Assembly: GCA_964016885.1 (NCBI GenBank)
Contig: OZ024740.1
Coordinates: 164,052,001-164,116,000, forward strand
Length of the DNA: 64,000 bases
Direction: 5' to 3'
Source: Eledone cirrhosa
Lineage: Eukaryota
Shown: positions 12,349 through 62,465 of the stretch, piece after piece
Layout: each line of letters opens with the position of its first letter
How positions within the stretch are numbered: position 1 is the first letter of the stretch
Notes under the pieces: model-generated
What the model was told of the DNA's origin: nothing
Seen by the model: the letters and a program-made list of their open reading frames with translations, nothing else
The model's database searches: none
Translations under genes and position numbers: made by a program

Positions 12349-12924
12349 ACAATACAGATTAGTTTTATAGATAAATATTGACATACCCTGAACAAACATA
12401 TCAAAACAAGTAAATAATTTAGTATTGAACAAAACACAAGCTGAACGACTAAAACACACAATAACAGTTAATATGAAAAGAGCAACATACACAAAAGTCA
12501 ACGAACTTTATAGACAGAAACGCATTAACGGTAAGGAAGTCCAAAATCTCACCGCACCAAACGAGAGGCATGACTTCATGAGCGTCATCCGACGTGAAAT
12601 GAAATACGCCCGAAACGAATGCAATAGGCATTTCAATAAGAAATTAGAATGGATGAATAAGAAAAAACTACAAGAAAGGAAAATAGAATATTCTCAAAAA
12701 TACCCAGATAACATCAACAATATCCGTATGACTGATGTAAAACTACCGGAAGAATTTACCAATGACCACACAGTAAATATTTATGGGAACACTTTAATCA
12801 GTGAACAAGAACAACAAATCCTGCAGCTACCACCAAAATTTGCCATCTACAAAAAGATTAACCCTATTGAGTGCAAAACGGAGCTGGAAAAGTGTTTCAC
12901 AAAAATACGTTGGAATGCAAAAGT

Positions 12925-17055: not shown

Positions 17056-17103
<48 letters not shown>

Positions 17104-17105
<2 letters not shown>

Positions 17106-22087: not shown

Positions 22088-22392
22088 CGCGGGGACATAG
22101 AAATAATCGGGCTGGATGCCCGATCGCTCAGTTAAACCACTGGGAGTAAAGAACCTCTAGCCCTTGTTAGGGCATTCTTCTAGGAGAAGGCATCTCAGGA
22201 AACTGGGTTAGCTCGGACATAAAACCTGCGGCTCAGTAGTTACCGATGATGTTGATCTTTTCTTCTTTTCGGGTTATAGCTACTGTCGCTCAGAGAGTGG
22301 GATTGGCTCAGTGCACAGTCTTTCATCACTTTAAAAATATTCGTCACGCACAGGCATTGCACGAGTGCATTAATAATTATTAATAGTGTACT
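22088..22392 (+). mobile_element. RTE-derived non-autonomous element (subtype A), middle part
   Basis: Matches 46465-46770; the missing 3' end appears at 29480-29524. Confidence 0.75.
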
Positions 22393-22455
22393 ATTATTAT
22401 TATTATTATTATTATTACTATTATTATTCCTTTTTTTTTTTTTTTTTTTTTTTTC

Positions 22456-25400
22456 CAATTCAATGATGTTCCAGAACAATATAAAAGAGATAATTGGCAA
22501 TTTAGGTTCTGGAACAAAAAAGATCATTGGCAATAAGGGCAGGGGCCCCAGGTTATCACAGCCTGTGCCCGCTCGTCATCGTGCCATTGTAATAGAGCCA
22601 AACAAGGCATTTAGTCTTGGCTGCTGGAACGTACGGACGCTGCTTGACAGGGATTCCTTGGGGCGTCCTGAACGAAGGACCGCTCTTGTTGCAAAGGAGC
22701 TTCGACGTTACGATCTTGACATCGTGGCTTTATCTGAGACGAGGCTAGCTGGAGATGGTCATCTTACGGAATTTTGTGGAGAATATACATTCTTCTGGAA
22801 AGGAAGAGATGAAGGAACCAGAAGAGAGGCTGGGGTAGGATTTGCTGTTAAGACTGTGCTTGTGAACAAATTAGAGGAATTCCCAGTAGGGATTAGTGAG
22901 CATCTTATGTCCATGAGAGTTCCGCTGGACAAGGGAAGATATGCTACCCTGGTGAGTGTGTATGCTCCAACTATGAGTTCTGTCGATGAGGAAAAGGTGT
23001 CCTTTTACCATGCCTTGAAAGGTGTTTTAAGAAATATCCCTTAGGCAGACAAAGTCATCGTGCTTGGTGACTTTAATGCTAGAGTGGGTAGGGATTTTAA
23101 CACATGGAATGTAATCGGAAGGAATGGTGTGGGAAAGTGTAACAGCAATGGGATGCTCCTGCTGCAGATGTGTGAGGAGCTGGATCTGTGTGTTACCAAC
23201 ACCATGTTCCAACAAAAGAACAAATTCAAGACCACATGGATGCATCCTGCATCTAAGGAATGGCATCTTTTGGACTACGTCCTAGTCAGGATGCGTGACA
23301 GACAGGATGTGCAGTGTGTCGTGTTCTTCGTGGAGCTGAGTGCTGGACGGACCACCGCCTGGTAAGCGCAAAAGTGAAACTAATCACTAAACGTAAAATC
23401 CGGGCTCCTGGTGTTGCCCTGCCCAAAAGATTGAATGCTGCTCGTCTTAAGGATAAAAATGTGAAGAGGACATTGGAAGAAGAGATGCAGGCTGCAGATC
23501 TTGGTGAGGATTGGCCGACCCTTAAAAAGTCGGTTTATGATGTAGGCAGGCGTGTTCTGGGATTGGTGCAGAGGAAACATCAGGACTGGTTTGATGAGAA
23601 TGATGTACATATAGAAGACTTGTTGGCTGATAAGAGGCGTGCTCTGTCACGCTACTTGACGGCAAAACCACAGGAGAGGAATACGTTGCATGAGGAACTC
23701 AGGGATATAAAATCACGTGTTAGGCGGAGTCTTTCTCAGATGAAGGATCAGTGGTGGAGTGAGAAGGCTGGTGAGATACAAACTGCGTCTGATTCCAATA
23801 ACACAAAGCTGTTGTACAGTCTCTTGCGTGAGGTTTATGGACCATCTTCTTCTCTGGTGACACCGCTTCGCAGCAAGGATGGCAAAGAACTTCTTCGTGA
23901 CTCACAAAGAATTCTACGAAGGTGGCGAGAGCACTTTGATGATCTTTTGAATCAGCCAAACTTCTGGACCGTCTGCTGACACACATTGCAGATTGTGTTC
24001 TTCCTGAAAGTCAATCTGGTTTTCGTGCTGGACGCGGCACTACCGATATGATCATCTCAGCTAGACAGCTCCAGGAGAAGTGCATGGAACAAGGCTTGGA
24101 TCTGTATCAGGTTTTTGTCGATCTGACAAAAGCTTTCGATACTGTTAACAGAGATGCATTATGGAAGGTTCTCCAGAAACTTGGTTGCCCTGATAAGTTC
24201 CTTGCTTTAGTTAGGTCTTTCCATGACGACATGAAGGCTTGGGTTAATGTCGGAGGTAACATGTCGGAGCCTATCTCAGTAAAAAATGGAGTGAAGCAGG
24301 GGGATATTCCAGCACCGACCCTGTTTGCCATATACTTTGCAATGGTTTTCTGTACTGCATTCAGGAATTGCGAGCATGGTCTTTACATCAGATATCGAAC
24401 CTCAGGTAGCATATTTAACATCAGGCGCTTTGCTGCGAAGACAAAAGTGTTTACATCAATCATAAGAGACCTCTTGTATGCAGATGATTGCGATCTTGTA
24501 GCGCACACAGAGAGTGATATGCAGCACATTTTGAATGCATTTTCTGACGCTTGTACTGCCCTAGGTCTGACTGTCAGTCTCAAGAAAACCGTCGTCATGT
24601 ACCAACCTGCCCCTGGAAAGCAGTACACTGAACCAAACATCTATGTGTATGGCAAACGACTTGGAGCGGTTGATCAGTTTGTCTACCTGGGAAGCACTGT
24701 CAATCGATACAGCAACCTTGACAGTGAAATCTCACTTAGGTTTAGGAAAGCAAGTGATGCTTTCGGAAAGCTAGAAAGGCGATTCTGGGGTCGGCGAGAC
24801 ATATGCAGGAGGACAAAGGTAAAGGTGTACAGGGCATGTGTGCTCTCTTGTCTTCTTTATGCCTGCGAGACCTGGGTCACATATCGACACCACCTTAAGC
24901 AATTGGAGCGTTTCCATCAGATGTGTCTCAGACGGATCCATGGCGTTCACTGGAGGGACCACATCAGTGATGTCGAGATTTTGGAAAGCTCTATGTGTGA
25001 CAGTATAGAAGCTCTTGTGCTTAAGCAACGACTCCGTTGGAGTGGTCACCTTGCCAGGATGAAGGATTCTAGAATACCAAAACAACTCTTTTATGGAGAG
25101 TTGGTTAAAGGAAAACAACCGTCACATAAACCAAAAAAGAGGTATAAGGATTCCTTGAAAGCCTCTCTGAAAGACGCTAACATCTCTGCTGATACATGGG
25201 AGAATATTGCTGCTGATCGTAATAAATGGAGAAAGACTGTATATGAGGGAAAAGTTGCTTTGAGGCATCTCAAATCGCATACGAGAAAGTTAAGCGGGAT
25301 GTGAGGAAGGGCATTGCTGTTGCACTTCCAGACGGCGAGGGTCCTCCTATGGTGCTGACATGCAGCGTATGTGCGAGACTCTGCCTAAGCAAAGCTGGAC

Positions 25401-25657
25401 TCGAAAGTCATCTTCGCAGTCATAAAGTAAAACCAGTGGTTGACTACCAGGCTGCTGTTGGAGATGCTACTCATCATGCTTGCCAAACATGTGGTAGAGA
25501 ATATAAATCAGCAGGAGGGCTCAAGCGACATGCAAAAGTACACGAACTCCAACCACAGCCAACTATTCCCAGTAAATGTTTTGGTTGCCGACTCTGTGCA
25601 AGACATTTTAGATCATTGGCTGGGCTAAAAAGCCACATTCGATCGCAGCGCTGCTAG
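22456..25657 (+). mobile_element. RTE-BovB clade LINE, decayed, with an internal deletion near 23960
   Basis: WNVRTL...RPERRTALVAKEL...VALSETR (APE); FVDLTKAFDTV, GVKQGDIPAPTLF, LLYADD (RT); three C2H2 fingers at 25301-25657. Confidence 0.92.
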
Positions 25658-25762
25658 TTGCTATCGTGTGTGTGTGCCTGTGTAGATATGCTTGTGTGTG
25701 CGTGTGTGTGTATATATATATGTATATGTATATTATTATTGTTGTTGTCGTTATTATTATTG

Positions 25763-25830
<68 letters not shown>

Positions 25831-25845
25831 GTTATTAATGTATGT

Positions 25846-25899
<54 letters not shown>

Positions 25900-25993
25900 A
25901 TATGTATATATATATATATTTATTTATTTATTTATTTTTATTTTTTTTTTAATTTTAATTTTAATTTTTATTTATTTATTATTATTATTGTTA

Positions 25994-26057
<64 letters not shown>

Positions 26058-27810
26058 AGTTGCATTTATCTTGCTTTATGTTCATATGAGTTATCACCAA
26101 GTCACAACCAGTGACCTCAAGAGACAACAAGGTCCGCCATGTTCAAGAAAGAACATACATATTCACACATGCATCTTTAGTGTTTAGACTTGTGATGTAC
26201 TTATATTGACATAATCTTCCTTAGTATATGGGCAGTTCCCATTAGTACTATCTTTTGTATTTCTCCTATACGCGGGTTTCCCGGGATTTGCGATAAGTAA
26301 TCATTAGACCCCTTAGGTATCATTCCCAGAGCGCCTACAACCACTGGTATTGTTTTAGTTCTCAATTTCCACATTTTTCCAATTTCTATCTCCAGGTCCT
26401 TATACTTGCTCAATTTTTCAAATGTTTTTATAGATACATTCTTGTCTATTGGAACAAACATATCAATTAGCAGGCATACCCTCTTTTGAAAGTCCTTCAA
26501 TATTATATCAGGTCTGTTTGCATCTATTTTTCGGTCTGTTTGGATGCTAAAGTTCCACAAGATTGAGATGTGATCTTTTTCAAGTATGGGAGGTGGTTGA
26601 TGCTCCCACCAATTCTTTTGATGGGGCAGGTCAAAATGCTTACACATTATCCAATGTATGTATTGTGCAGCTCTGTCATGCCTGTTTAGGTATTCGGTTG
26701 GAGCTATAGGACTGCACATTGAAGTTATATGGTCAATGGTCTCTGGTTGTTTTTTGCATACACGGCATAATGGGCTGCACCCATTTTTTATTATGTTGGC
26801 TTGGTAATTTTTTGTTGGCAGACACTGATCTTGTGCCGATATAATCAGTCCTTCAGTCTCCGATTTCAGTCCAGAGGATGCCAACCACTGATGGGTTAAA
26901 GTTTTGTCAACATCAGGATTGTTAGCTCGCTCTGGGTATTTTCCATACAGAGGCTTTTCTTGCGATTTCTTAGCCAGTTTCTGTAGCAGTTCTTTCTTTG
27001 CAGTTACTTTTACCTGCTTTGCTTTTTCTGTGTTTTCCATTTCTGCAGTAAATGGGACTTCTGAAATTTGTAGTCCATTACTGTATCTTTGTGCATCTTT
27101 TGTAATGGAATATGATCTTTTGATGCTTTCGTGTTTCAAAACGAGTTTGATCATGCAATCATGTGATTCCCTTAGATATGTAAATAATCCAATTGTTGCA
27201 GTTTTTAACGCAATGTCTAACTGGATTAACCCACGTCCTCCTTCTTTCCTAGGGAGATATATTCTATCTATATCTGCTTTAGGGTGATGTATTCTGTGCA
27301 TGGTTAAGAATTTTCGAATTTTTGTATCGAGCCTACGGATCTCTGTGCTTGACCAGTTGATGACATTGTAACTGTAGGTTACTACTGGTATGGCAAGCGT
27401 GTTTATGGCATCGATCCTATTCCTTGCATTCAATTCCGTTTTTAAGATTGCTCTCACTCTGCGGTAACATTCCTTCCTTATCCTTTCCCTCATTGTCGAG
27501 TGCTTGATTCCGTCTCCTTCACAAACACCTAGATATTTGTAAGTTTTTTCTTGATCAAGTTCTCTTATCACGTTCCCCCGATCAAGATTAATGTCTGAAC
27601 TCTTCAGCAGCTTTCCTCTGGTGAACGTTGCTTTGGCGCATTTATCTAGTCCAAACTCCATTTTAATGTCATCACTGTGGATAATAGCCCTTGCAATTGT
27701 TCATCATTTTTTGCAAATAGTTTCAGGTCATCCATGTAGAACAGGTGATTAATGGTTTTGTCATAGACTTTATATCCCTGTTTTGTTTCATTGAGCATTT
27801 TACTTAATGG
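26058..27810 (-). mobile_element. Dong/R4-clade RLE retrotransposon A (5'-truncated) in (TAA)n
   Basis: HLFYMDDLKL, KEGGRGL, CRVC...HITSMC, RHD, NRPDII...ID...K..KY; TAA runs on both sides. Confidence 0.9.
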
Positions 27811-27812
27811 TA

Positions 27813-27912
<100 letters not shown>

Positions 27913-27919
27913 GTTGTTA

Positions 27920-29404
27920 TTCCTTGAATCTCAGTCATTGATGTTGGTTAACTGGAAAGTCCGTTGGATTGAATATCAAGCCACTACCTGCAGCCTCAGA
28001 TATTCAGGACGTATCGGAGGGTTCTTGCTGTTCCAAGCAAGCATGCCTTTTGAAGCGTTCCAAAAAGCGTGAAGGGGCCGATTTTCTTTAACCATCCCTG
28101 GAAACTTTTGGAGATAGTCCCCAGTGCGCCTATGACAATCGGGATCACTTTGACTTCATGGCAGTTCCAAATCCTTTTCACCTCCCACTTTAGGTCCTGG
28201 TATCGGTTAATTTTCTCCCTCTCCTTCTCTTGCACTCTCGTGTCGAACGGGCAGGCCACATCCACAATCAGACACGATCTTTTTTCTTTGTCCACAACCA
28301 CCAGGTCAGGTCTATTGTGTTCCAGTTTTTTGTCCGTCTGTATCCTAAAATCCCACAGCACCTTCACCTGATTGTTCTCCATCACCGCCTCTGGCCTATG
28401 CTCATACCATTTCTCAGAATGTGGTAAATTGTTTACTTTGCACAGGTGCCAGTGGATCACCCTGCCCATCACATCGTGTCTCCAGCCCTTATAGTGGGTC
28501 TGGGCTAGGTGTTTACACTCTGACACAATGTGAGCCACAATCTCCTCTCTCTCTCCACAGATCCTGCACAGTGGGCTAGCCTCCTCCTTGTAAATATGGT
28601 GCTTCAACCACTTCGTTTTGAGGGCCTGCTCCTGCGCAGCCATTAGCATTCCTTCTGTACCCTTTTTGAGGTCTCCTCTTCTCAACCAGTTCCATGTCTG
28701 TGGATCTCTAAATTCAGTTTTCTCAAAGAAGGTACTATGAAGGGATTTTCCCTTAAGGCTGCTCTTCCTCCTTGATGTTATTTCCTCCTTGGACATCCCC
28801 TGGCCTACTGTCCCCTCCTTCAGTACAGTTCTGAGCATTGGCTCCTTACTATAGGTCACGTATTTGTATAGGTTGTTTTTCTCCATCTGAACACAGTCCT
28901 CTATGCTGATAAGACCTCTTCCACCCTCAGATCTCCTTAGGTAGAGTCTATCGACATCACTCCTCTTGTGGAACATGTTGTAGATAGTCAATAGCTTCCT
29001 AGTCTTCCTATCCATTTCTTTTTGTTCAGCAACATTCCATCTCAGAATTCCCGCACTGTACCTAATAATAGACACAGCTCGGGAATTTACTGCGCTTATG
29101 GCATTTCTGCTGTTCAGATGTGACTTCAATACGCTCCTTACTCTCCGAATGTATTCAGTTCTTAACAATTCCTTCATTTTTTTGTTCTTTATGCCATCAG
29201 CCTCCAGAACGCCCAAATACTTGTATCCTTCCTCAGAGTCAATTTCCTTTATCATCTCACCTGTTGGTATCTGGATCCCGTTACTTCTGCTCAACCTACC
29301 CCTCCTCATCACAATGACTCCACATTTACCAATACCAAACTGCATACATATATCACTGCTGAAAATACGGACAGTGTCAACAAGCACATCCAACTCCTTC
29401 TCAC
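27920..29404 (-). mobile_element. Dong/R4-clade RLE retrotransposon B (5'-truncated) in (TAA)n
   Basis: YKYLG, EGGRGL, CRIC...HIVSEC, RHD, NRPDLV..VDVACP; TAA runs on both sides; protein distinct from A. Confidence 0.9.
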
Positions 29405-29466
<62 letters not shown>

Positions 29467-30226
29467 TTTTTTTTTTTCTTTTCTCGTGCAATGGCCATAC
29501 TCGATAACGAGGGGGCACCCATCATGTATGTATGTATGTATGTATGTATGTATGTATGTATGTATGTATGTATGTATGTATGTATGTATGTATGTATGTA
29601 TGTATGTATGTATGTATGTATGCATGTATGTATGTCGTGTCACTCTTGAATACTACTCTTGAGTACAACCTGTCGCATGGTCGGGTCGTCGGTGATTAAA
29701 CCGGCAACGCCACTAAGTTTACTTGGTGAGCAGGGTGATTTTGGACATCCTGCAGGACAAAAAACAAAACCTGACAAAGGGCGGAAGAACTCATAAGAGT
29801 CAACGGCCATCCAAAAATGTGTAAATATGTATATACACATGCACATATGTACATATACACATGTACATATGTATGTAGATGTATGTGTGCATGTATATGC
29901 AGTGGCGGACAGGCCAGGTTACCAGGTTGCCCAATGGCAAGTGGGCCCTACAGGGCCCACGGCAGCATTGCAAGAGCCCAGAGTAGCATTGCAGGGCCCA
30001 CTGTAGTATTTTAAGGGTCAATGCTTTGCTTTAAAAAAATAGGTGAAATCTAAAAGAAAGAATAAAAAAAAATAAAACAATTAAGCAAAGCATTTGGTCA
30101 ACCAATTCCCCAGGAAATTAATAGAAACCAAAATAGCTGGATCAGTGGTTGTACATTATACTAAATCTAAAGTTTAGTGTACTCATTCATGCTTGCAAAC
30201 ATACATATATAGACACAGATACACAA

Positions 30227-30944: not shown

Positions 30945-33254
30945 TAATAATAATACATTTGAAGACAAAAATCCAAAGCGGGCTCGATAAGGATAAATAT
31001 ATATCAAATATATAAGAACCCCAATTCGACATCAATAATTACTACTCCTCCATCACTTTACCACTTCTCCTTAGAGCTATCAATTTCGCTAAAACACTCA
31101 CAGTGGTTAAGGATTTCGAAGTTGATGTCATCCTCAATGCCCGTAAGTCGGTGATTAATTACGACGACTATGTTTGGATAAAAAATCTAATAGTACCCCA
31201 TTCGAGGTGAGTATGGGCGCCAGAAATTCAGCGGAGGTTACTGATCTTATCGGCTTTTTCCTTCTTTTCTCTATCAAGGAAGAATTCCCCAACGTGGGTG
31301 GTGGTTTGTACCGTGATGATGGTCTTTTGACCATGACAAAGTGCGGCCCACGTGCTTGCGACAGGTTAAGAAAAGAACTCACAGATTTCTTTAAAGGCTT
31401 CAATCTCTCCATACAGGTTGAGGCCAACCTCTTGGTCGTTAATTACCTCGACGTTACTCTCAATTGGTCGAATGGCTTGCACTACCCGTATAGAAAGCCG
31501 AATGATACGCTTAATTACATAAGTAAGCATTCTAACCATCCTGCCAGCATAACCAAGAACCTAGTAAGAAACGTTTCTTTGAGGCTTTCCCGTCTATCTA
31601 TTAACGAGCATATTTTTAACGACCATTCCACATATTACAATGAAGCTCTTGCTCGGAGTGGATCTGTCGATAAGGTAGTACATAAAGAGTACGAGAATAG
31701 ACCTAGAAAAATAGATCCCGACGCATTATATTGTATAACCCACCATATAATATGGAGGTGGCGACACCATTAGCTAAGATCTTTCTCTCCCTTATTATGA
31801 AGCATTTTCACCCAACACATAAATATAGTAAAATTTTTAATAGAAATACCATTAAAATTTCTTACTCTACGACTCCTAACCTTGCACATAACATCACAGC
31901 TTCAAATTTAGCTAAACTACCTAGCCGTAGGAACACGCGCAACCCTGTAGCTAGTACTAACTGTAATTGTAGGAATCGGGTTGACTGCCCCTATCCGGGA
32001 AATGCCTCTCTAGTAACATTGTCTACAAATGTAAGGTTGAAACATCCACGTCCCGTAGGGCCTACATAGGGTTAACCGCCAATAGATTCAAGCAGCGTCT
32101 TTACATGCATACCCATTCTTTTCTTAACCCTTTAAGAAAGAATATGACGTCACTTTCAGCTTATATCTGGAGTCTAAAAGACAACCACACCCAATATAAG
32201 TTACACTGGGAGATCCTAGCTAAAGCTAGATCGTATAACAGAAATAAAAGACCATGTGACTTCTGCGCCGCTGAGGCCCTGGAAATACTCTACGCCAAAG
32301 ACCACAACTTAAACAAAAAATCTGAGGCAATTTCGGCTTGTAAATATAAATTGCACAAAACTTTCCTGTATTACAGCCCCACATTATACCCTAACGGATA
32401 GTACGAACTGTACGCGGATATTTTATGTCTTGATGTGGTAACTAAGTATATGTTATGTTTATACCATTACTTATTTGTATTGGTAAGTATATATTACCTG
32501 TATGCTTTGTGAAGGTACGTATACTTTCTCGTACGTATATAGATTGTATATGTTATGGCGTATATATTATATATTCTGGTACATATGCATTTGGTTATGT
32601 GTATACGCGAGTTTTGCGTCTGTGTGAGTATGCGGGTGCGTACGTATGTAGGGTGTGTGTATATGTGTACTTTGTGTTTTGGTTGACGTACGTTTCCGAA
32701 CATATGTGTATTTACATGTAGGTATGTGTGTGCGCGCGTTATATACGTATTTATTTATTTATATACGTTTATTTAATTATATGTACACACACAAACACAC
32801 ATATATATATATATTTTATATATATTTTTATGTGTATTTGGTGTATACATTCGTATGTGTGCGACTACAGGCGTTGCATGGGTTCTGTATGTGCGTGCTG
32901 TTTTTTTTTGGTGTACGTACTTGTATATGTATACCTTGGCGAGTGTTTTCGCGTATGCTTGTGTATGTACGTATTTGGATGCGTGTATGTATTTATTTAA
33001 TTTCAATTATCTCTGTATTTTATTTACTTTATTCTTAACTCTGAAACAGAGAATCATTCGGTTTCCTAGTTAGAATTTTAGTCTACGACTTCAGCTATAC
33101 CATATACGTGGTTTTGTCTTTGCGTGCAATTGTTCTTCCCGCTCCACATATGACGTATTTTCTTCGTTTTTTCCGTTCATTGCCAGAGAACGTCTCCATG
33201 AACCACCTAATAGAATATTAAACTACGACTTCTTTTATACCATAAACGTGGTTT
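30945..33254 (+). mobile_element. Penelope-like element 2 (distinct group), 5'-truncated and frameshifted, between (TA)n tracts
   Basis: FDINNYYSSI, FEVSMGARNSAEV, LYRDDGL, NYLDVTL; CNCRNRVDCP; NIVYKC...AYIGLTANRFKQR. Confidence 0.88.
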
Positions 33255-38059: not shown

Positions 38060-38711
38060 ATATAGAATAGCCGTTAAATCTCCATCAAATTTCATTCTGC
38101 CGTCTTCAAAAAGAAAAGAAAAAAAAAAGTAAACACTGGGTACTTCAATCCTGGATATGTTATGTCTGTATAAGACGGAATTTGTCTTTGATTTTATGAC
38201 GGCTCTATCAGGGACGACTTGGTGAATAAAAAACAACCATATAGCGAGAGTAAGGTAAATACATATGAATATATCTATAGGTAGTTATTTAAAACTAGAA
38301 AAGATATAACAGCGACAACAGCAACAGAAGTAACAACAGCAGATGTTACAACGGCATATGTAAGTAACATAACAGCAGATGCAGCAAGATTCAAATTTTA
38401 CAATAATTTCTTTTTTCCTGTTTTCTCTAATTTATTGTGTTTCCCTAACATTAGCGCTGTTATTTACATATGTTTTCATTTAACAGTTTCAATGTATTGT
38501 ATTTTTTTCTAAGTTTTATCTGTCGTCTACTATCGTATCATATTTTCTTCTTGTCATTATGTTTTTGCTTACAGTTTCACCAACTTTACTGACTACTGTT
38601 TATCATTTTTACCCAATCTTTTCTCTTTTTTATATTTTATTCTATTTAGGAATTATCATTTTTTTCTCTTTCTCGTTTTACCTTTTTTTTCCTATCAGCT
38701 TAATATTAATG

Positions 38712-38783
38712 TTTTTCCATCATCATTTACAATATTGTTTATAATCCGTCCTTTCTTCCATATTAGCTTTGCATAATTTCCAG

Positions 38784-38851
<68 letters not shown>

Positions 38852-38922
38852 CTGGAAATTATGCAAAGCTATTATGGAAGAAAGGACGGATTATAAACAA
38901 TATTGTAAATGATGATGGAAAA
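38712..38922. repeat. Near-perfect inverted duplication centred on (TA)n
   Basis: ~75 bp arms: ccatcatcatttacaatattg...ccagcttta / taaagctgg...caatattgtaaatgatgatgg. Confidence 0.92.
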
Positions 38923-38955
38923 AGATAAAAATATATAGAAAATGATAAAAAAAAA

Positions 38956-39027
<72 letters not shown>

Positions 39028-39050
39028 GTGGTTACACAACAGTTAGTTCA

Positions 39051-39100
39051 CCATACCGAGAACAATTGTTTCACCTTAGCGGATCTTCAGCTCGGAATGG
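39051..39100 (-). ncRNA. Minimal type I hammerhead ribozyme
   Basis: Minus strand: ccattccgag-CTGAAGA-tccgctaaggt-GAAA-caattg-TT-ctcggtatgg; 9 of 10 bp in stem I; palindromic stem III. Confidence 0.8.
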
Positions 39101-39245
39101 GCATGGTTATAGGAACAGGAAGGACAACCGTACGAACGCGCATGCGCAGAAACCCTGTCACTTCACACAGGCAATACTAGACTGCGTGCGAGAGGTGTAA
39201 GGGAGATAACTGCAAAAGTCCGAAAAGTTTGTAATAGAGTGGGTA

Positions 39246-39351
39246 ATAGGAACAAGTAAGACCCCGACGGCTGAGCTCAAGCCGTTTCGACGGCTAATTC
39301 TGGAATTAGCCGTCGAAACGGCTTGAGCTCAGCCGTCGGGTCTTATTTGTT

Positions 39352-39356
<5 letters not shown>
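39246..39356. repeat. ~110 bp near-perfect palindrome
   Basis: ataggaacaag...gccgtttcgacggctaattc tg gaattagccgtcgaaacggc...ttgttcctat. Confidence 0.92.
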
Positions 39357-39402
<46 letters not shown>

Positions 39403-39535
39403 GTAGAAGTTATATTTAATTCGTTGGGATACAACAAGCAAATATTTTTATAACTGATATAAAGCACTCAACGAATTTTTGGAGTAAAAATACAATATAT
39501 TAATAAATGGAAACTATATTTATAAAACCATATTT

Positions 39536-39598
39536 ATTTCATTATACATATTTCAAGGACACCAAAGCAAATTATGGTGCACTTTCATCAGATAAAAT
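39536..39598 (-). ncRNA. Minimal type I hammerhead ribozyme
   Basis: Minus strand: attttat-CTGATGA-aagtgcacca...tggtgtcctt-GAAA-tatgta-TA-atgaaat. Confidence 0.8.
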
Positions 39599-39639
39599 AT
39601 AATATAGATAAGTTTTATAAACAAATATTGACATACCCT

Positions 39640-39699
39640 TAAAAGAATGCGACAATGTCTGTTGGAAGCTCCGGGAGCTTCCAACAGACATGGTCGCAT

Positions 39700-39706
<7 letters not shown>
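39640..39706. repeat. Near-perfect 33-bp-arm hairpin
   Basis: taaaagaatgcgacaatgtctgttggaagctcc g ggagcttccaacagacatggtcgcattctttta. Confidence 0.9.
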
Positions 39707-39735
<29 letters not shown>

Positions 39736-39878
39736 TTATTTAGGTTTGTTGGTTCACCACTGGATAGAACTGGTCATTCCGTAGGCCAACCTCGATGTAA
39801 TATTATGGAGAGCACTCAACGTAATGCAACTCACCCGTCTTCATTTGTGTAGCTGGTGCGAGTACGGAGTTAATTATT

Positions 39879-40194
39879 ATAAAATAACACGAGGCTGGAC
39901 TGTCTTTGACGGGGTGGTAGTAGTACACTATAAGCCTACTCCCTTCACCAGCTGGACATAAGTAGGCTTAATAATCACCACTTGAGGGCGGCCGACCGGG
40001 TTAGAAGCTGCTAAATGTTCGGTCGCCCTCATGTCTCTGATTTTCAGCCCCATGGATTTTGTCTATTATATTCCTTTGTTATATTTTGAATACCTGATGA
40101 TGTCACCGGATTCATACTGAACCCGGTCATTGAAATGATCATAGTATAATAAACTTTTAAGGAATTACACCAGTCCAGCCTCCTGTTATTTTAT
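39879..40194. mobile_element. ~315 bp unit bounded by 24-bp inverted repeats and containing a hammerhead
   Basis: ataaaataacacgaggctggactg / cagtccagcctcctgttattttat (1 mismatch); abuts (TA)n. Confidence 0.7.
40090..40147 (+). ncRNA. Minimal type I hammerhead ribozyme
   Basis: atac-CTGATGA-tgtcaccggattca tac tgaacccggtcatt-GAAA-tgatca-TA-gtat; palindromic stem III atgatcat. Confidence 0.8.
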
Positions 40195-40275
40195 TATAAT
40201 ATATATATATATATATATGAAAATGTATGACCCCGACGGCAGAGCTCAAGCCGTTTCGACGGCTATTTCTATATG

Positions 40276-40307
<32 letters not shown>

Positions 40308-40317
40308 CATATATATG

Positions 40318-40418
<101 letters not shown>

Positions 40419-41371
40419 GATTGATTCTATAGACATGTTTTATGATATAATGCTCTGATTTTTGATTTTAACTTATTAATTCTTCATTGAGCTTAAAAGT
40501 GAACAGTCGCAACACATATATGTATCCTTGATTTAATTTAATTTAATTTTATGTATGTGATAACCTCTATATTTATATATATATATATATATATACATAC
40601 ATGCATACACGTATGTATTACCTAATTCGTACTAGCTTCCATTATGTTCTCTTTATTTTCTCTATTAGTTTGTGACCACCCACCCCCTCTCTCTCCGCCT
40701 CTCTCTCTCTCACTCTCTTTCTCTCTCTCTCCTCTCTCGCTCTGTTGTTTTGTCGCTAATCTTTCTGGCTTAATTTATACCATTAAACGAATCTCCAATT
40801 TTATAAACGTCATAATTCTTTTCATCTTAATCTTTTACTTCCTTCTTTTTCTCCTGGATTTCTATATTATACTTGATTTTACTTATCTTTTTCCCATATT
40901 TGTTCCTTTTTTTCAGTATTTTTCTTGTCGCTTCTTTATCAATTTTCTCGTTTTCCTTAGTTTCGTTTTTAATTTATTGTGCTGTTTCTTCCCCATTGTA
41001 ATAAAACAATTTTCAATTATATGTTCTATTTTTCCGCCATTACTGTATAAGTATTTCACATATTCCACATATTTCGTATTAAATAATCTTCTATGTATCA
41101 TTATACTATACAAAGTATAGGTACTTAAAATTTTCTCACTTTCTGGATTTCTGGATTAGCTAATTTTCTTTCGATAAATGCACCTTATTATTTTTCATCT
41201 CGATGTACGAATGTACATATAAATGCGCCATTTATTGTTCTTAGTTCAACATGAATGTTATGATTGAAGGTCATGTATTCGATTGCTTTCGCATTTATGT
41301 GCAGTCCGATATTAACAACTGAAATCTAAACTTGTTTGAACAACTCTGGTGCTGGCTGAGTTTTATTGGCC

Positions 41372-47730: not shown

Positions 47731-48443
47731 GTTCTTCTGGTTTTATAATTTCACAAAGTTTTACCAATAGAGAGAGAGTCGGTTTCTAACATAGACACAA
47801 GACTCTCTCATTGGAATTTACACATCAACTAGGTAGATATGTATGCATGCATGTGTAGATATGGATGTTATTGTATGTGTGGATGTGTATGTGTGGATGT
47901 GTATGTTTTGAGTTGTATGTGTGCATGTGTATATGCTTTGCATCTGTACATGTGTATATGCAGTTATTAGATGCAACATTGTTGGAATGTTTTACATATT
48001 TTTACTGTTCCATTAATGGATTGTACTTGTAGTTTCCTAACTAGTTGTGTTCTTTCTGTTCCTGTGAAGCCTAGCTTCTCAAGATTTGTATTGAGGCAGT
48101 TATTAACATATCCCAGTGCCCCAATAATCACACACATAAATCTGAAGGTGTAATCAGGGTGGAGTATATGCAGATTTCTCATCAGTTCTGCATAAATATT
48201 CTCCTTTTCACTAATCTTTGATATTATATTGGCATCTGCTTGGCAGCTAATTTCCACTACTGTGCATGTTTTCTTCTCCCTGTCCCATATCATAATATCT
48301 GTTCTGTTATGCCTGCATCTATTGGGGTTTTTACTGGAACATTCCACCAGCACTCTTTCATATTATGCACATGGATGTCTTCCACATTGTTGTAGCTTTT
48401 AATGTTTATTATCGGGGCTATCTTTTTTACGAACTGCATTGTA
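47731..48443 (-). mobile_element. R4-clade RLE element C, short 5'-truncated copy, with (TATG)n on both sides
   Basis: RLE domain NRTDIMIW..VVEISC...KENIY; closely matches 49225-49933. Confidence 0.9.
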
Positions 48444-48498
48444 AAGTATGTATGTATGTATGTATGTATGTATGTATGTATGTATGTATGTATGTATG

Positions 48499-48526
<28 letters not shown>

Positions 48527-48529
<3 letters not shown>

Positions 48530-49107
48530 CATGTATCCCAGTACAACTTGTCTCATGGTCGGGTCGTTGGCGACTAAACTGGCAACCCCACCAAGGTTTG
48601 TTGGTGAGGAGGGTGACTTTGGACATCCTGCAGGACTAAAAACAAAACCTGTCAAAGGGCAAATGAGCTCTTAAGAGTCAATGGCCATCCAAAATCACCG
48701 GGAGAGATGACCCCTTAGCCTTTGTCAAGGCAGAATTCTAGGAGAAGGAAAACTCTGATATAACACCTGCAACCCTGATGGTATCCAATGATGTTGACTT
48801 GTTCTTCTTTTTCGTAAATATCATCTTGGTTAAGAGAGTGGGACTGGCTTTGTGCAGTGCCTTTGCTCACTATAAAAGCTTCACGGCACAGGCATTGCTT
48901 TTATCTGGAGATCTCTCTGCACTTGTTGTCACATGGTACCATGGGCCCAGCACTATGTGTCAATAATTGTCATAAGTGTAGTGTTTGTACCAGAGTTTTC
49001 AAGTCGCTGGCTGGACTAAAAAGTCACACTCGTTCAGCGCATCGGTAGGGTTCTCCTACATGGATATAAAGTAGTGGCCGTACTCGAAAACGAGTTGGCA
49101 GCCACCA
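48527..49107 (+). mobile_element. RTE-derived non-autonomous element (subtype B) with a C2H2 remnant
   Basis: Shared head; [23 protein letters not shown] near the 3' end; hairpin gccgtactcg-aaaa-cgagttggc. Confidence 0.82.
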
Positions 49108-52100
49108 TGTATGTATGTATGTATGTATGTATGTATGTATGTATGTATGTATGTATGTATGTATGTATGTATGTATGTATGTATGTATGTATGTATGTAT
49201 GCATGCATGTATGTATGTATGTATGTTCTTCTGGTTTTATAATTTCACAAATTTTTTCCCAATAGAGACAGATTCGGTTTCTACCATAGACACAAGACTC
49301 TCTCATTGGAATTTACACAACATCAACTAAGTAGATTATGTATTAATGCATGTGTAGATATGGATGTTATTGTATGTGTGGATGTGTATGTTTTGAGTTG
49401 TATGTGTGCATGTGTATATGCTTTGCATTTGTACATGTATATATATGCAGTTATTAGATGCAAAATATTTGGAATGTTTTACATATTTTTACTGTTCTAT
49501 TAATGGATTGTACTTGTAATTTCCTAACTAGTTGTGTTCTTTCTGTTCCTGTGAAGCCTAGTTTCTCAAGATTTGTATTGAGGCAGTTACTAACATACCC
49601 CAGTGCCCCAATAATCACAGGCATAAATCTGAAGGTGTAATCAGGGTGGAGTATCTGCAGATTTCTCATCAGTTCTGTATAAATATTCTCCTTTTCGCTA
49701 ATCTTTGATATTATATTGGCATCTGCTGGGCAGCTAATTTCCACTACTGTACATACTTTCGTCTCCCTGTCCCATATCATAATATCTAGTCTGTTATACC
49801 TGCATTTTATTGTAGTTTTTACTGGAACATTCCACCAGTACTCTTTCATATTATGTACGTGGCTGTCTTCCACGTTGCTGTAGCTTTTAATGTGTTTATT
49901 ACCGGGGCTATCCTTTTTACGAACTGCATTGTACAGTGTTTTGGCCACTACATCATGCCTCATAGGTAGATAGTACCGCGATGACATCTTTGGACAGCTG
50001 CTGATGACATGGGTGACATCCTCGATGTTAGTTCTGCAGAGTCTGCACTTGTTATCACCTCTTGGTGTTTTGCCTGCATCTCTATCTCTTTTGTGAATCA
50101 GGTATTTCGTGTTAATCTCCTGTTCTTGGATTGCAAAAGCGTATCCTTCTAAGTGGGAGCCAATATAGCGGTTGTTGGTCCAAGATAGGCTACTTTCCTT
50201 ATCTACATTACTCTCTCTCTGGAGCTTCCTGGCAACATATCCATGCATGATCTTTTGCTGATAAGTATGCAGTTTTTCATCCATGGATTCACTACGATAC
50301 TGCTGAGCGACTTCCCTGGGTGTGAGCTTTTGATTATCACATAGGGAATATCTCTCGAGGAGTTCCTTCCCAACTCTCATGATCTTATCTGTTTCCTGCA
50401 GATAGACTTGCTCGAGAGACGGGCTCCTACGCTTCGAGGTTCGTAGATGTTGTTGGAGAGATATGATGCGACATTCAAATGCTGTCTGGACTGATGTTAT
50501 GCCTCTGCCTCCCTGCTTACATTTCAAGTAAAGGCGGTCTATGTCACTGTTGATGTGGAAGTTCCCGTGTAGTTTAGTATTTTTCGAGTTCCAACATCAA
50601 CTGCTCGGATTTCGTCCATCATCCAATTGAGTATTCCAAACGTTGGTGTTAGGACAGGCACAGCAAACACATTGTGAGCCACTGTTTTGTTTTGCGCAGA
50701 GAGTTCCGATGACCAAATCTTTCTTAATCGGGTGTAGTATTCCCTGGTTACGCATTCCTTATTACAGATACCATTATAGGATATGTTCTCATCTATCCCC
50801 AGGTATCTGTAGCAGTCCTCATCAGATATCGGTGAAACAGTTAGGCCATTGATGACAATGTTGCTAGATTGGGTTGTTGTTTTCCCCCGCTTTATAGTCG
50901 TGTATGAGCATTTATTTTGGCCAAACTACATTCCTATATCCTTTGAGAACGCTGTAACCAGGTCAAGACTTTTCTTCATCCAATCCATGTTCTTGGCATA
51001 TAGTTTCAGATCGTCCACAAAGAAATTATGGTTAGGTTCGTATTTCTGCCCTCCTGTGAGCCAATGATGTATCCCTCACATTTCTTGAGCAGAAAGGACA
51101 AGGAGTTTAATGACAAGATGAAAAATATCACAGAGAGACTGTCCCCCTGAAATATACCCCTGCACTATTTTATTTTATCAGTGAAAATAGAGTCCTCCCT
51201 CTCTGTCTTTAACCTTAGGATAGTAGCCCAAGAAGAAGACAGCCTCTCTATGTCTCTGACAATAATGTCTGGGACTTTAGCTAGTTGGAGGGCGTCTATC
51301 ATCCAAGAGTGGGGAACAGAATCGAAAGCTTTCTTGTAGTCCAGCCAGACTGTAGCCATATTCCTCCTAAGTTGTCGCACCTCCGACATCGCAGTTTTGT
51401 TGATTAGGAGTTGTTCAGCACATCCCCAAACCCCTTTATTTCCAGCTGTTTGTTCATCTGAGATGATGTTATTATTTTCACAGTCATCTTGGAGGAATAG
51501 GTTCAGGCAGGCTGTATACATCTTATACATCAGGTTCTGGCATGCAACGGGTCGGTAGTATTTTGCCAAGTGGGTGTCTTTGTTCTTGGGGATCAGTAAT
51601 GTTTGTGCTAATGTCAACCATTCTGGTATAAGTGTATCTCCCTTAAGAACTTGTTGGTAGACGTCAGTAAGATACCTCCGATAGAATATCAGTGTTTTGT
51701 ACCAGTAGCCGACAATCATATCTCTTCCTGGTGTTTTCTTATCTTAGAATTTTCCTATCACAGTCTCAAGGGTACCCTCACTTATTTCGTATGTTTTTGT
51801 TGTAGTGTAGGAGCAATAGTTCTTTCGGATTTCTCTTAGCCACACTGCATCTTGGTTGGAATTCTTCTTTTCACTCCATATTTTGCTCCAAAAGGAATCT
51901 ATGTACTTATTATTTTGTTCTTCATATCTCTATAGACCGATGTTTGGTTTCGTCTGAATCTTTTATTAAGCACTTTACTCTTATCTACCTTCTTCAGGTA
52001 TCGGCGTTTTTCGCTAACAGCTCTTAATTCTTGTTTGAGGGTGATCAGCTTATATTGAAGAGTTCTGGTTCTACTGTTACCAAACATCGTCTCTATTTCA

Positions 52101-52310
52101 TTTTTCACTCTTTGTTGGTGAGGAGTGAGTTTTTTTTGTGTTTGTTTGCATGAAAGGAGCGTTGTCACAATCGTAGGTCAGCAATCTTTTTTTCTATTTT
52201 AGTTATATATGATGGTATTTTTGGTGGTGTTCTGTTCTTGTTAATATATCTGCTATCACCAAGATAATGCTTCACTGTTGTTGCTAATGCATATAAACAG
52301 GCGTTGATTT

Positions 52311-52912
52311 TTAACGAAGGGATATTAATAAGTAATTAGATGGTTATATGTGGTTATTAGAAATAACAATAATAAATGATTTTAGTTTATATATGGTTTA
52401 CTTCACGTGAATCAATTAAAATGTACAATAAAACAGTTACCAAGAGTTGCGAAGGTTGACAATGTTATTTTGTTGTTGATATGAAAACAGCGAGCGACGA
52501 GATAATGTTTGTTGGTGGTTAAAGATTGTTGCAGTCGTCATAGTAGTTTTCGTCGTGAGTCTGAGACCATAGTGAGTGAGAGATAGTAATGGTCTGTAAT
52601 TGATTGTAGACCACTGTGGCTTCTAGATAGCGGAATATCTTTCACATAGCGGGTCTGTAGTAGTAGGGCTCTGATCTCTCTATCTCTGTAGACCACTGGG
52701 GTCTGTTGATAGTGGTGAATCTTTACATAGTTTGTTATGTATCGTAGAGCTCCAATCTATATGTTCAAGGTGGGAAAATATAGGCTTTATATACCTGTCG
52801 CTTTCTGCCTCCCACCTTTAGGGGATAGCCCACGCATGAACCTGTTCACACCAAAAGGGTGATGACTTTTAGGTGTCACCCAAGGTTCAAAGCGAGGACA
52901 GATTTCACTACA
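52311..52912. mobile_element. Solo-LTR-like insertion in R4 element C
   Basis: 5-bp TSD gattt; ends t(g)taacgaa...ttcactaca; excision restores host frame TFWQINACLYALA. Confidence 0.7.
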
Positions 52913-53195
52913 GATTTGCCAAAATGTTGGGGTTTTTATCCGTCGTAAATATTCATCCCTATTTCGTGAATAACACGTAATATTTTATTTTTTTATTTTT
53001 TTTATTAAACATTGTCGTTTTAATACGTTCAGCAAGAGGGATATTTATACATGAATTAATTTCTCTCTGGAAGATTTCGTTCAGGGAAATTTTCAATTGT
53101 TTATAATTTTGATTATTATCATTATCGATAGTATTTTCCACAACAGTCGAGGTAGACTCGGATGGTACACGTGGTGTCAAATTTCTTCGATTATT

Positions 53196-53385
53196 GGATT
53201 GGCAGTATCGGTAGAGGGTCGGACGCCATTCTTTGACGCATAGAGTTACGGCCCTTGCCATTCTGAGTTCAAATCCAGCCGAGGTTAACTTTGCTTTTCA
53301 TCCTTACGGGGTCGATAAAATAAAGTACCAGTAATGCACTGGGTAATTGCTGGCCTTGTGCCCAAAAGTAGAAACAATTATTATT
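53196..53385 (+). mobile_element. tRNA-derived SINE (Meta-domain-like), full length
   Basis: A box tggcagtatcggtag; B box gagttcaaatc; 15-bp TSD atttcttcgattatt. Confidence 0.88.
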
Positions 53386-54081
53386 ATTTCTTCGATTATT
53401 ATTATTATCGATAGTGTTTTCCCCAGCATTCGAGGTAGACTTAGATGGTACAGGTGGTGTCAAGTTTCTTGCAGGCATAGTTGTTTCAAGGCGCTGTTCG
53501 ACCTGGCTGCTAGGAAGTCTAGTAGCATGGCACGTGTTGTTGATAACATGTTTGTTGTGGGGGACTTACAATTAATACTATTTATCTTATTTTTACGTTC
53601 AACAAACGTCGCTTGTTGGCGTAATTGTTTCGCTGTGAAATAATTTAGCTCTGGGTGCATTTCGTCCCAGTGTAGCTTTATTCTGTTTATATAGCCAATG
53701 GAGGGATTGTCTTTTTGCCATTTTATAACAATTAAATAAATCATTATTAAGTTCGCAACTCCAAGAGAAATGCGATTTATAATTTCAGTTTCTTCTGTAG
53801 CTACAACTGAATAAAGTTTGTTTACCTTTCTTGTTGTTTGTCTACTTCCTTAATTTTGTTGTTGATGTTGTGTTCAGCCATGCTGTTTGTAGCAAATCCT
53901 TGTAAAAGGGATTATGTATTTAGTCGGATTCTACGAATTCGAATAAAAGGTGTCTTCAGAAGATATAGTTAGAAGAATAACCAGTTATTCAACATGACTG
54001 TAGTTGTGGCAGAGATAGTATTCATCTTAAATTTAATAAATAGTCTCCCTCGCCAAAATATGCGACTGATCGCTTTGACTG

Positions 54082-54566: not shown

Positions 54567-57500
54567 CCGGATGGTATAGACGTTCTTCACATCGGCTCTT
54601 CGAGTGTTGGAGATATTACGTGTTAACAGTAAGTGTTTGTTTGTATTCTTGTGTTATTGTGTTAATTAACCCCATTGCCTGGGTCTTCGGACATTAGGGT
54701 TAATTTATTTCACCCCTTTTGGGGTGAAATTTTTCATCCTAAAAATCTTGTAATGGAAGCCATTACCACAGGTAACGATGACACGCCCACCAAACAAACT
54801 GAAGGAGAGCGGGTAGCGGAGGCAACAAGCCTCCCTACTGAAAGAATAATGATTATTAGAAACATTGAAAAAATGGAGCCTAACCCTAATGAAAAAAATG
54901 TGAAAAAAATTGACTCGGAGAAATTGCCAACATTAATAGATGCCGTTTCGACTTTTCACGGTGCCACGCCCACCAGCAAAGGTGAAAGAGAAGTAGTAGC
55001 TGTGACTAGAAGTCTCACAGATACTGAAAATATAAGTGAACATATTGAAAAAATGGAGTTTAACCCCAACGGGGAAAAAATGTGAACGCATACACCAACA
55101 TAAATAACATAAACACAACAAAAAATGAAAATTGTAACAACAAAAAACAAGAAAACCACATTTCGACAAATGTAAACAGAGAGGGGCGAACAAAATGACG
55201 TTCGCTCAAACCATAAAAAAACCCCATTGTGTATGAACCTATTGACATTTCGAACATGGCCCAGCAAATGGAAAATGCACGGAAGTATATCACTTTGGAG
55301 AAGAATGGTCTATTTTCTTTAAATTCTCCCCCAGAGCTAAAAAAGGAAAATAGCTTAAAAACTATTATTTATAGGACAATATCAAACAAAACCTGTAAGC
55401 CAGAGATTGAACTGGCTTTAAAAGATCATCTGAAAAAACATTGTATACATTCGGAAAGATAGACTCTACGGTAGTCTATCCATCCGAATGAAAGATAAAT
55501 TGACGGCCGAAAAACATTCCCTGGCCCCAATTGTGTTCCCCTTATTTACCTTCTTCCCCATTTATTTGGGAAGAAAAACACAAAGATTGACCATACACAG
55601 TATCGATCCAGATATTGATATTTGGGCGGTACTGTGTGGCCTCCTCGATTTGAAAGAGGATGCAGTAATTTCGGTAGGTAAGTCTTCCAGCAACGTGTTC
55701 GGTGGAACTAGCCTGCAAGTTCTGGTGCAAATGCAGCCAGAACGAATTGCTAGGATCCCCGACCGCATATTGCTGGATAGGCTTGCCTACTTACCCATCA
55801 CAGTGGAGGGTAGACGACTCGCTTGTTACCTCTGTGGTGGCAGAGGTCACCTGAGGGCTGCCTGTTCCCAAGCAAACAAAAAAACACCGATTTTGCCCAC
55901 ACCAACAACTACAACACTACCAACACAACCTCCACCACCACCACAAAAACAACTAACACAAGTTAAAACACAACTGAAAACAAGCCCCCCCCCCAGAAAA
56001 CAAATACAATAACACCCACACCACAAACAGGAGCCGAAAATGAACCCCCTCTCTTCGAATACGGAAGACGACCCCCTTTCGTCATCAGACGAGGGGGGAG
56101 GGGGGGGGGGGCACTTTCATAAAGTTAAAAGAAAAAAAAGAAAACGCACCACAGGAACACAAATACAAACAACCCCGCCCCAAGACATAACACAGACATC
56201 AACACAAAAAACACACAGCAGCAAACAAAAAACATCACAAAAAAAGAAAAATATGCATATACTTACATAAATACAATAAACAAAAAACTGTTAAACGTTA
56301 TTTATAATAACAACTTAATAAAAACCGAAGGTTCGAATTTCGCACAAGCAACGGGGTTTCCCCATCTAACAATGATAAACGCCCCAATGGACATTTACAA
56401 AACGTTAAAAGACACTTTTAAAGAGGACGTGGGGCCCCCCTTGCGTCAGACCCATTAACCGTGTCCTCCTAAAAAATCCCCCCTCAGACACCCACACAAC
56501 TCCAAACACCCCAACCCCCTCCACACACTGATGCCCCTACACTTCCACAAACCACCACCCCACCCAACAACCTATCCCCCACCCCCATGGAAATTGTGCG
56601 GCCCGCTCCCCGGGACGCAGAGAGGTAAGTGCCTTTTCTCTTTACCACCAACATGGCTGTGTTGAGAATAGGTTGTCTAAATGCGTGTGGCCTGGGCTCA
56701 CCTTGGAAGCAACCAATGCTTCTAAATGACCTCAGGTCACGATGTATAAATATGATGGTTATTTGCGAGGCCCGGATCAGCAGCGTGCGACAGCTGGACC
56801 CCACCTTTGATGACTTTGAGATGCACGCATCTCTCTGTCAGCCAGGAGGTGGGGTGGGGTTGTCGTTCTGCTGCAAAAACATCTGGGTCTCGCTACACAG
56901 ACGGTACACTTGGACCCGGAGGGTCGACTAGTGGTTCTGGACCTTGGCAGTGGTGAAGGCGGAGCTTTTAGGATGGTCGCCGTCTACGGCCCCTTTGGGT
57001 CAACGCGGCCGGACTTCTTCCAGCGTCTGGAGACTTTTCTAGGGACGTCCCGCTCCTTGCATTTAGTGGGGGACTGGAATGGTATCCTAGATGCACGTTG
57101 GGACTATGTAGGGGCATGTCCTGATAGAGAGGGTTGTAACAGCCTCAAGGGGTTAATCGGCCGATTCGACCTGGCCGATAGATATCGACTAGATTTTCCG
57201 ACTGTACCAACCTGGACTTGGAGAAAACACAGCGGTCAATCTAGATCGTACCTAGATAGGTTCTTAGTTAGAAATAAGGATAGGGACTTGGCTATTCAGA
57301 CCACAAGTTAGTGACCTCAATGGTCAACCTTGATAGAACGCATAGACAGGGACCCGGTTACTGGAAGCTCAACTTGTCCTTACCGGCAAGTAAAGCTTCC
57401 AGGAACCGGATTAGTACATTAGTTAAGGAGCGGTTGACGGGCGCCATCGTCAACAGCAGGTGGTGGGGCTCTCTTAAAAGAGAGATTAGAGTAGCTTCAA

Positions 57501-60279: not shown

Positions 60280-60280
<1 letters not shown>
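54567..60280 (+). mobile_element. Tx1 copy 4, apparently full length (5' UTR, ORF1 54753-56628, ORF2 56653-60057), frameshifted
   Basis: Starts right after (TATC)n at 54547-54566; CYLCGGRGHLRAAC knuckle; APE and RT; ends aataaatagaaact then (TATC)n. Confidence 0.92.
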
Positions 60281-60358
<78 letters not shown>

Positions 60359-60368
60359 GTTATCTATC

Positions 60369-62405: not shown

Positions 62406-62465
62406 CCATTTTGTAGATTGATTTCCCCGTCTGAATTGTCAGCGAGTGGGTCATCGCATTTTTGC

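Follow-up and report, generated by a model that had tools for sequence, protein, structure and literature searches.

Introduction

The closest described relatives of the sequences reported here belong to the Hydra clade of Penelope-type elements (PLEs), which Craig et al. (2021; PMC8557442) describe as C-terminal EN+ PLEs sharing a set of protein motifs. Their supplement gives a preference for (TA)n targets for nearly all Hydra members, includes one octopus family, and describes Hydra hammerheads in which a U.U flanks the core and the site is GUU or GUA. In our search of the literature on hammerheads in Penelope/Hydra elements or cephalopods, this was the only study found to treat the group. 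Dispersed single hammerhead motifs from truncated PLEs, and opposite-strand pairs 100–700 bp apart, were described earlier (Cervera and de la Pena, 2014; PMC4209133), and the role of PLE hammerheads has been called unknown (PMC7761336). Their cleavage is dispensable for PLE insertion in vitro, and internal initiation of reverse transcription (RT) at two sites defines the PLE tail (PMC11167929). PLEs are known to insert into or beside earlier copies (PMC6765202), and head-to-head inverted pLTRs with a palindromic junction and an optional tail have been attributed to self-priming (Arkhipova et al., 2013; PMC3846280). Retrozymes, which also carry hammerheads, are recognized by a minimum of two units in tandem (bioRxiv 10.64898/2026.07.22.740005).

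We analyzed 64,000 nt of the Eledone cirrhosa genome (GCA_964016885.1, OZ024740.1:164,052,001–164,116,000, forward strand), hereafter the window, in which an initial annotation had pointed to a cluster of hammerheads and fold-backs among (TA)n tracts at 38712–40270. Searches of the animal's own genome cover 3.0 Gb.

Composition of the cluster

DNA searches of the genome split 39025–40270 into four dispersed repeat families, A to D, with 3303, 2657, 2587 (query 39403–39706) and 2628 genome candidates, respectively; 40 scored candidates of family A were 97–99% identical and 40 of family D were 94–97% identical. The segments are 5′-truncated 3′ ends set between (TA)n tracts, and the copies elsewhere have one common end joined to (TA)n and a variable other end, followed by unrelated flanks. 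Each family has two alternative 3′ ends, a short end or a longer tail end. Among 29 family A ends, 13 join TA directly, 3 lie near TA, 10 carry tails of ~65 nt and 3 are without TA; the 29 family D ends comprise 17 long and 12 short. The two alternative ends of A and D fit the PLE tail of PMC11167929.

The cluster begins with an inverted duplication (38712–38922), followed by a (TA)n tract (38956–39024) that is joined to the last 209 nt of family A (39025–39233, minus strand), a 5′-truncated PLE with the short 3′ end, Hydra-type by the motifs given below. No TA separates it from family B, likewise a Hydra-type 3′ end by motif, which is present as a head-to-head fold-back of two 55-nt arms plus 15 nt of tail (39231–39356). 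Beyond a (TA)n tract at 39354–39402 lies family C (39403–39672, minus strand), also Hydra-type by motif and with a long tail (39403–39489), whose fold-back junction (39640–39706) has a 33-nt inverted second arm; this junction recurs in other copies, where the second arm is longer. Among 10 unselected C-like anchor matches, three stop 41–43 nt past the anchor, adjoining the cluster's own C junction, one runs on, and six are diverged or unrelated. A further (TA)n tract (39705–39739) leads into an inverted copy of family D with the long tail plus 28 nt (39735–39902, minus strand), and then into the last 300 nt of D with the short 3′ end (39900–40200, plus strand). These two parts form an inverted pair (39873–39902/40171–40200) that is absent from the initial annotation; elsewhere, the 39735–39902 segment continues directly from the 40200 end. 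A second family B stump, of another subfamily (89%) and truncated inside hammerhead helix II, occupies 40215–40270 (minus strand), and the cluster ends at a (TA)n tract (40270–40416). No ORF of at least 100 aa overlaps 38712–40270, as had been annotated, and no tandem repeat of period >8 lies inside the cluster.

Parent elements

The annotation had proposed PLE termini among its readings, and a genome search for partner PLEs bore this out for A, B and C, whose long copies lead into single ORFs encoding an RT and then a C-terminal GIY-YIG domain (by motifs and alignment). In family A, a 587-aa ORF (L198, L199) precedes the 3′ end, stopping just upstream of it in long copies, and an upstream PLE protein match accompanies 41 of 46 A ends. 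The family B end lies ~1.3 kb after its ORF (L133 and L202, the latter with the ORF in two pieces), and the parent of family C has a 628-aa ORF ~1.9 kb upstream of the 3′ end (L211). An upstream PLE match was found at 8 of 113 C ends, the C ORF lying beyond most of the flanks examined. The three proteins are 37–43% identical over the RT, and the annotation's description of the hammerheads as unrelated was therefore too strong.

All three proteins have SDKT (DKG changed to DKT), a CxCx5C linker (CSCRKPEAC in A, CNCPDRSIC in B, CNCRNKYNC in C), and CxxC and CxH around E and N. CCHH is absent, with at most one Cys between the GIY and YIG half-motifs; the N-terminal RWK position reads KWR in the alignment of A, and that region is missing from the B and C copies compared. 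All three families insert into (TA)n and have a hammerhead near the 3′ end, with a canonical core in A and C and a U3-A8 variant in B. Pfam gave no match for four A, B and C proteins. The domain order, DKT, CxCx5C, CxxC, CxH and lack of CCHH are those of the Hydra clade (PMC8557442; Hydra-1_Obim, Penelope-13_HM), as are the 3′-end hammerhead with U.U and GUU or GUA sites, the (TA)n target, and an inverted 5′-truncated copy at the 5′ end. On these diagnostic motifs, we assign the A, B and C parents to this clade as probable members; the homologous proteins recovered are unnamed or hypothetical entries. There are also differences. The B and C 3′ UTRs measure 1.3 and 1.9 kb, whereas the members published in PMC8557442 are mostly <3 kb overall; tails here reach ~65–140 nt, against 30–40 nt in the PLE descriptions consulted; and, unlike the Hydra hammerheads in the material examined, B pairs its U3-A8 core with a helix II of 54 nt, and the helix III palindromes are mostly even and loopless. 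The Hydra clade is already known for (TA)n targeting and such hammerheads, and families A–D would be new families of a known pattern.

Other PLE remains occur in the window. A broken PLE at 12392–15900 has cysteines between GIY and YIG and appears Neptune-like by motif; ahead of its RT are stretches rich in asparagine, which recall the N-rich inserts described in PMC3846280. The two best named homologues of the window PLE protein are molluscan, and Pfam found RVT_1 in only 3 of 8 window proteins. We considered the PLE at 12392–15746 as the partner of family C and rejected it, as it does not resemble the C protein and is not followed by a C end. Beside it, 12127–12392 holds a further intact hammerhead (plus strand, helix III AUAUGUAU, a different helix II) and, on the opposite strand, a C-like end (91%) whose core is damaged, with a short TA tract between them. 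A further family B stump is joined to (TA)55 at 8610–8663, and 31159–32401 is a fragment of a further Hydra-type PLE with a protein 56% identical to that of B. Most other window sequence (260–7800, 17056–19700, 22280–29650, 47967–53850 and 55434–63750) consists of decayed non-LTR retrotransposon ORFs and microsatellites.

The parent of family D is an ORF-less unit of ~2.1 kb in partial tandem, measuring 2088 nt in L207, 2405 nt with insertions in L205 and 1780 nt with a deletion in L206. In four long copies, the longest stop-free frame is 108 aa, and tblastn found no PLE protein match in the D body below E 0.6. Upstream PLE matches at 5 of 86 D ends are attributable to other insertions (four are 82–96% identical to other families and one lies beyond the D sequence), and no autonomous partner was found upstream of these 86 ends. 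Family D has a partial-tandem pLTR, a tail, an inverted copy, a hammerhead and a (TA)n target, all features of non-autonomous PLEs, and we read it as a probable non-autonomous PLE with PLE-type ends, without placing it as a Hydra member. Contig depth over D climbs steeply toward the 3′ end and is no measure of copy number. The D body in L207 (7000–7540) contains an internal module of ~225 nt twice, at 71% identity, the first copy folding with a z-score of about −2. Rfam had no match in the D unit, and a tRNA scan of four D loci and the tandem array described below found none.

The annotation had also offered short, non-coding, retrozyme-like units. On such a reading, transcripts would be cut between hammerheads and circularized. 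The segments are indeed non-coding, short and very numerous, with most copies short; D lacks an ORF and stands in partial tandem; and retrozymes have been reported as derivatives of PLE ends (bioRxiv 10.64898/2026.07.22.740005). Family D also resembles the non-LTR retrozymes of PMC7229834 and that preprint in its type I hammerhead, non-coding body and PLE derivation. However, the units described there are ~150–450 nt in tandem (up to 972 nt), whereas the D unit is ~2.1 kb, an oversized resemblance, and the cluster lacks any such repeat. Tandem units that each contain a complete type I hammerhead, two or more in a row, were found in an array elsewhere (L283) and nowhere in the cluster, where no two same-family hammerheads share a strand, no hammerhead unit is directly repeated, and the third hammerhead lies on the strand opposite to the first two. 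The 5′ ends of the families are variable and run into ORFs, and 30 pairs of same-type hammerhead neighbors comprised 27 head-to-head, 2 direct and 1 tail-to-tail, which runs against the circular RNAs predicted from transcripts of repeated units. It is thus very improbable that the pieces are self-standing retrozyme-like units: A, B and C are stumps of ORF-bearing elements, and for D the annotation was right that the unit is non-coding and wrong that it is short. The array (L283, G000:C28:110000001–110010000) fills 10 kb with 23.7 copies of a 420-nt unit at 92% match; 15 units have an intact type I hammerhead with helix III ACUAGU, and there is no ORF. It appears to be a retrozyme-like satellite of another family.

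Hammerheads and their palindromes

The three intact-core hammerheads of the annotation were confirmed by a descriptor scan, each with its own palindromic or near-palindromic helix III, as described. HHR1 (39051–39100, minus strand) has the core CUGAAGA..GAA with a U.U beside it, helix III ACAAUUGU and site GUU, with a predicted cut after 39061. HHR2 (39536–39599, minus strand) has the core CUGAUGA, helix III AUAUGUAU, which would contain two G.U in a dimer, and site AUA, with a predicted cut after 39543. HHR3 (40090–40147, plus strand) has the core CUGAUGA, helix III AUGAUCAU and site AUA, with a predicted cut after 40143. All three have the conserved core and three helices of type I hammerheads, and self-cleavage is predicted. 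Helix III has 2–3 bp in the monomer and 8 bp in the homodimer, the G10.1-C11.1 pair is absent from HHR1 and HHR3, and the monomers fold with only weak z-scores (−1.1, −1.1 and −2.0). Rfam found no match in the whole window at the gathering score and, at E≤5 in 38500–40600, no hammerhead family and only microRNA-type hairpin noise. Over the window and the loci (665 kb), the descriptor gave 229 matches versus 2, 2 and 1 in three shuffles, a total inflated by the choice of loci carrying these families; 191 of the 229, and none in the shuffles, have a self-complementary helix III segment, and the HHR3 palindrome accounts for 38 matches among the loci.

The annotation's count of three holds for intact hammerheads, although a fourth, truncated one in family B had been overlooked. 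In long B copies, the full hammerhead has a UUGAGAA core (the U3-A8 variant), the 54-nt helix II and a helix III of 6 bp; it gave 22 matches, all of family B (control 0). Each arm of the 39231–39356 fold-back retains just the 3′ half (GAAA, helix III, GUC), and both B pieces in the cluster start within helix II, and so each carries half a ribozyme. With 6 bp in helix III, the B hammerhead should not need a dimer.

It had further been proposed that the differing palindromes confine dimerization to members of the same family, i.e., that they act as private locks by which a ribozyme is activated only by its own family's RNA. In silico, the three palindromes cannot cross-pair, as had been suggested (homoduplexes −6.4, −2.2 and −7.2 kcal/mol versus −0.7 to +0.6 for heteroduplexes); they differ between families while staying self-complementary, and a family 47% identical to C in protein uses AUGCGCAU under the same helix I. 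However, a hammerhead dimer swaps helix I too, as reasoned from the dimer model in PMC4209133, and helix I of HHR1–HHR3 already shows no cross-pairing (0–3 bp), a mismatch that by itself would exclude heterodimers among them. Moreover, AUAUGUAU is not private: with the same helix I it is common to at least four helix II types and recurs in a family 66–80% identical in protein, and it pairs more strongly with AUAUAUAU (−3.2) and AUACGUAU (−4.7) than with itself. A family at 50–71% protein identity uses AUAUAUAU, and B, with its 6-bp helix III, would stand outside any such scheme. We consider family-private locks unlikely; the palindromes seem to track lineage, with at most lineage-level specificity.

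Fold-backs

All three annotated fold-backs (38712–38922, 39246–39356 and 39640–39706) are real. Those of families B (39246–39356) and C (39640–39706) are copies of the families' own 3′ ends in which just one arm carries the tail, and are the known head-to-head PLE inversions; the geometry of PMC3846280 is seen in B, C and D. In contrast to the pLTRs described there, the junctions gather at family-specific hot spots, that of B inside hammerhead helix II. Among B copies unselected for fold-back, 30 of 51 anchor matches were flagged as fold-back within 400 nt, equivalent to 14 events once one duplicate locus is removed, a count that omits several cases visible by eye and any longer inversions. 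Their spacers are 7–233 nt, and 12 of the 14 turn inside helix II. A cleavage-site origin of this hot spot was considered and rejected, as many junctions keep 2–3 parent bases past GUC and no core fits.

The palindromic B and C pieces might instead be MITE-like elements amplified from palindromic masters, with no fold-back at each insertion. The 29 best B matches do share nearly one centre, as do many C copies. However, those sets were selected by the palindrome itself, whereas the unselected B copies show at least ten distinct spacer lengths, from which we conclude that inversions arose many times. The arms are also asymmetric, since just one of them has a tail, and they have subfamily variants in common. 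Amplification from palindromic masters is accordingly rather improbable.

The leftmost fold-back is of another kind. At 38712–38922, single-copy DNA rather than a PLE arm is duplicated in inverted orientation around (TA)31 (38787–38848), with one mismatch between the arms. Across 3.0 Gb of genome, a DNA search and a 30-nt pattern allowing 2 mismatches matched these two arms and nothing else. An inverted arm likewise lies between the flank and the PLE 3′ end at three other loci (L003, L029, L118). Of the TA tracts, 8 of 1272 from selected loci are centres of fold-backs (1–6 in a shuffled-pair control), as are 3 of 485 from unselected DNA (control 0–1) and none of 183 from a further set; CA or GA tracts gave 0 of 410.

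Fold-back chimeras are a known artefact of long reads, and no contig bridges the 38922 junction by a 31-letter rule, so that the fold-backs could be errors of assembly at (TA)n. Against this, the arms of the cluster's fold-backs differ by 1–3 changes, the same structures recur genome-wide, and in public contigs the 38849–38923 arm has about double the depth of the adjacent junction contig in 3 of 4 runs (10.7 vs 5.7, 8.5 vs 4.1 and 10.7 vs 5.5), all from one sample that may be the assembly's own source. An artefact is hardly credible, and we treat the fold-backs as genomic.

Abundance

The annotation had allowed that the motifs might be single-copy and without core conservation, and this was not seen: the HHR1 pattern has 1,260 exact genome matches and the HHR2 helix I/core/helix III pattern has 15,044, over several helix II types (control 0 for both). 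Hammerheads of PMC4209133 share with ours the singles from truncated PLEs, opposite-strand pairs, palindromic helix III, dimer model and U3-A8 core variant; the 2,000–9,000 per genome given there contrast with the 15,044 exact matches from one lineage here. Unselected DNA (40 regions of 10 kb, 400 kb) gave 42 hammerhead matches versus 0–3 in shuffled sequence, or 27 in 390 kb without the L283 array, and 19 of the 40 regions hold at least one. From these 40 regions, mostly on large contigs and scanned with a loose descriptor, the genome total extrapolates to ~207,000 (bootstrap 131,000–300,000). For comparison, up to 120,000 are given for axolotl (PMC7229834). Many further hammerhead families at other loci (L002–L197, L244–L283) have helix III AGUACU, ACUAGU, AUGCAU, AGAACU, ACGU or longer stems, and often form head-to-head pairs 50–360 nt apart.

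The annotation called the cluster a hotspot. Any such effect is modest: beside A–D anchors we counted 49 other-family matches in 375 kb, ~2x background. Three hammerhead types within 1.1 kb occurred at 2 of 116 other anchored loci and at none of the 40 unselected regions, and none of the 116 anchored loci holds three or more of A–D. Four families in 1.2 kb are the upper extreme of a common process.

Discussion

We conclude that the cluster is very probably a row of 5′-truncated 3′ ends from four Penelope-type families, linked to one another by (TA)n; three of the families have Hydra-type RT/GIY-YIG parents. The likely origin is a single TA microsatellite that grew while receiving five independent insertions. 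Target-site duplications are not resolvable in (TA)n, and the number and order of insertions are therefore a proposal. In our model, the endonuclease would nick (TA)n, and reverse transcription would begin at either of two internal sites of the RNA, giving the short end or the tail end, and would usually halt soon after the hammerhead. The cDNA would then often fold back and prime a second arm, producing the B, C and D inversions, and the TA left on both sides of each insertion would be a target for the next family. Family D would borrow a Hydra-type protein in trans. The 38712–38922 duplication may reflect snap-back synthesis on the target side, for which (TA)n, being self-complementary, would have served as primer. 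The hammerheads would be part of the parents' terminal repeats, with no joint function at the locus, and HHR1–HHR3 would cleave mainly as same-lineage dimers. The dispensability of cleavage in PMC11167929 fits copies that keep whole hammerheads.

A bolder reading is possible, although we hold it to be doubtful, as it draws on one family and a small sample. The genome would carry ~200,000 hammerheads of PLEs, which may be the highest density on record, and their palindromes would fall into partly orthogonal classes; helix II would stall reverse transcription and prime the inverted arm; and 2-kb riders like family D would bridge PLEs and retrozymes. In the literature on PLE inversion, palindromes and dimers, we found no study of helix II fold-back hot spots or of cross-family dimers; Lunse et al. 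(2017) may cover partner specificity. If helix II does prime the fold-back, the hammerhead would be tied directly to the head-to-head signature of PLEs.

The locus itself is retroelement debris; as a sample, it points to a genome whose hammerheads are very numerous and diverse. Related families with a shared helix I and different palindromes are suited to testing the family specificity of PLE ribozyme dimers, and the same material bears on whether hammerhead structure sets the truncation and fold-back points of PLE copies.
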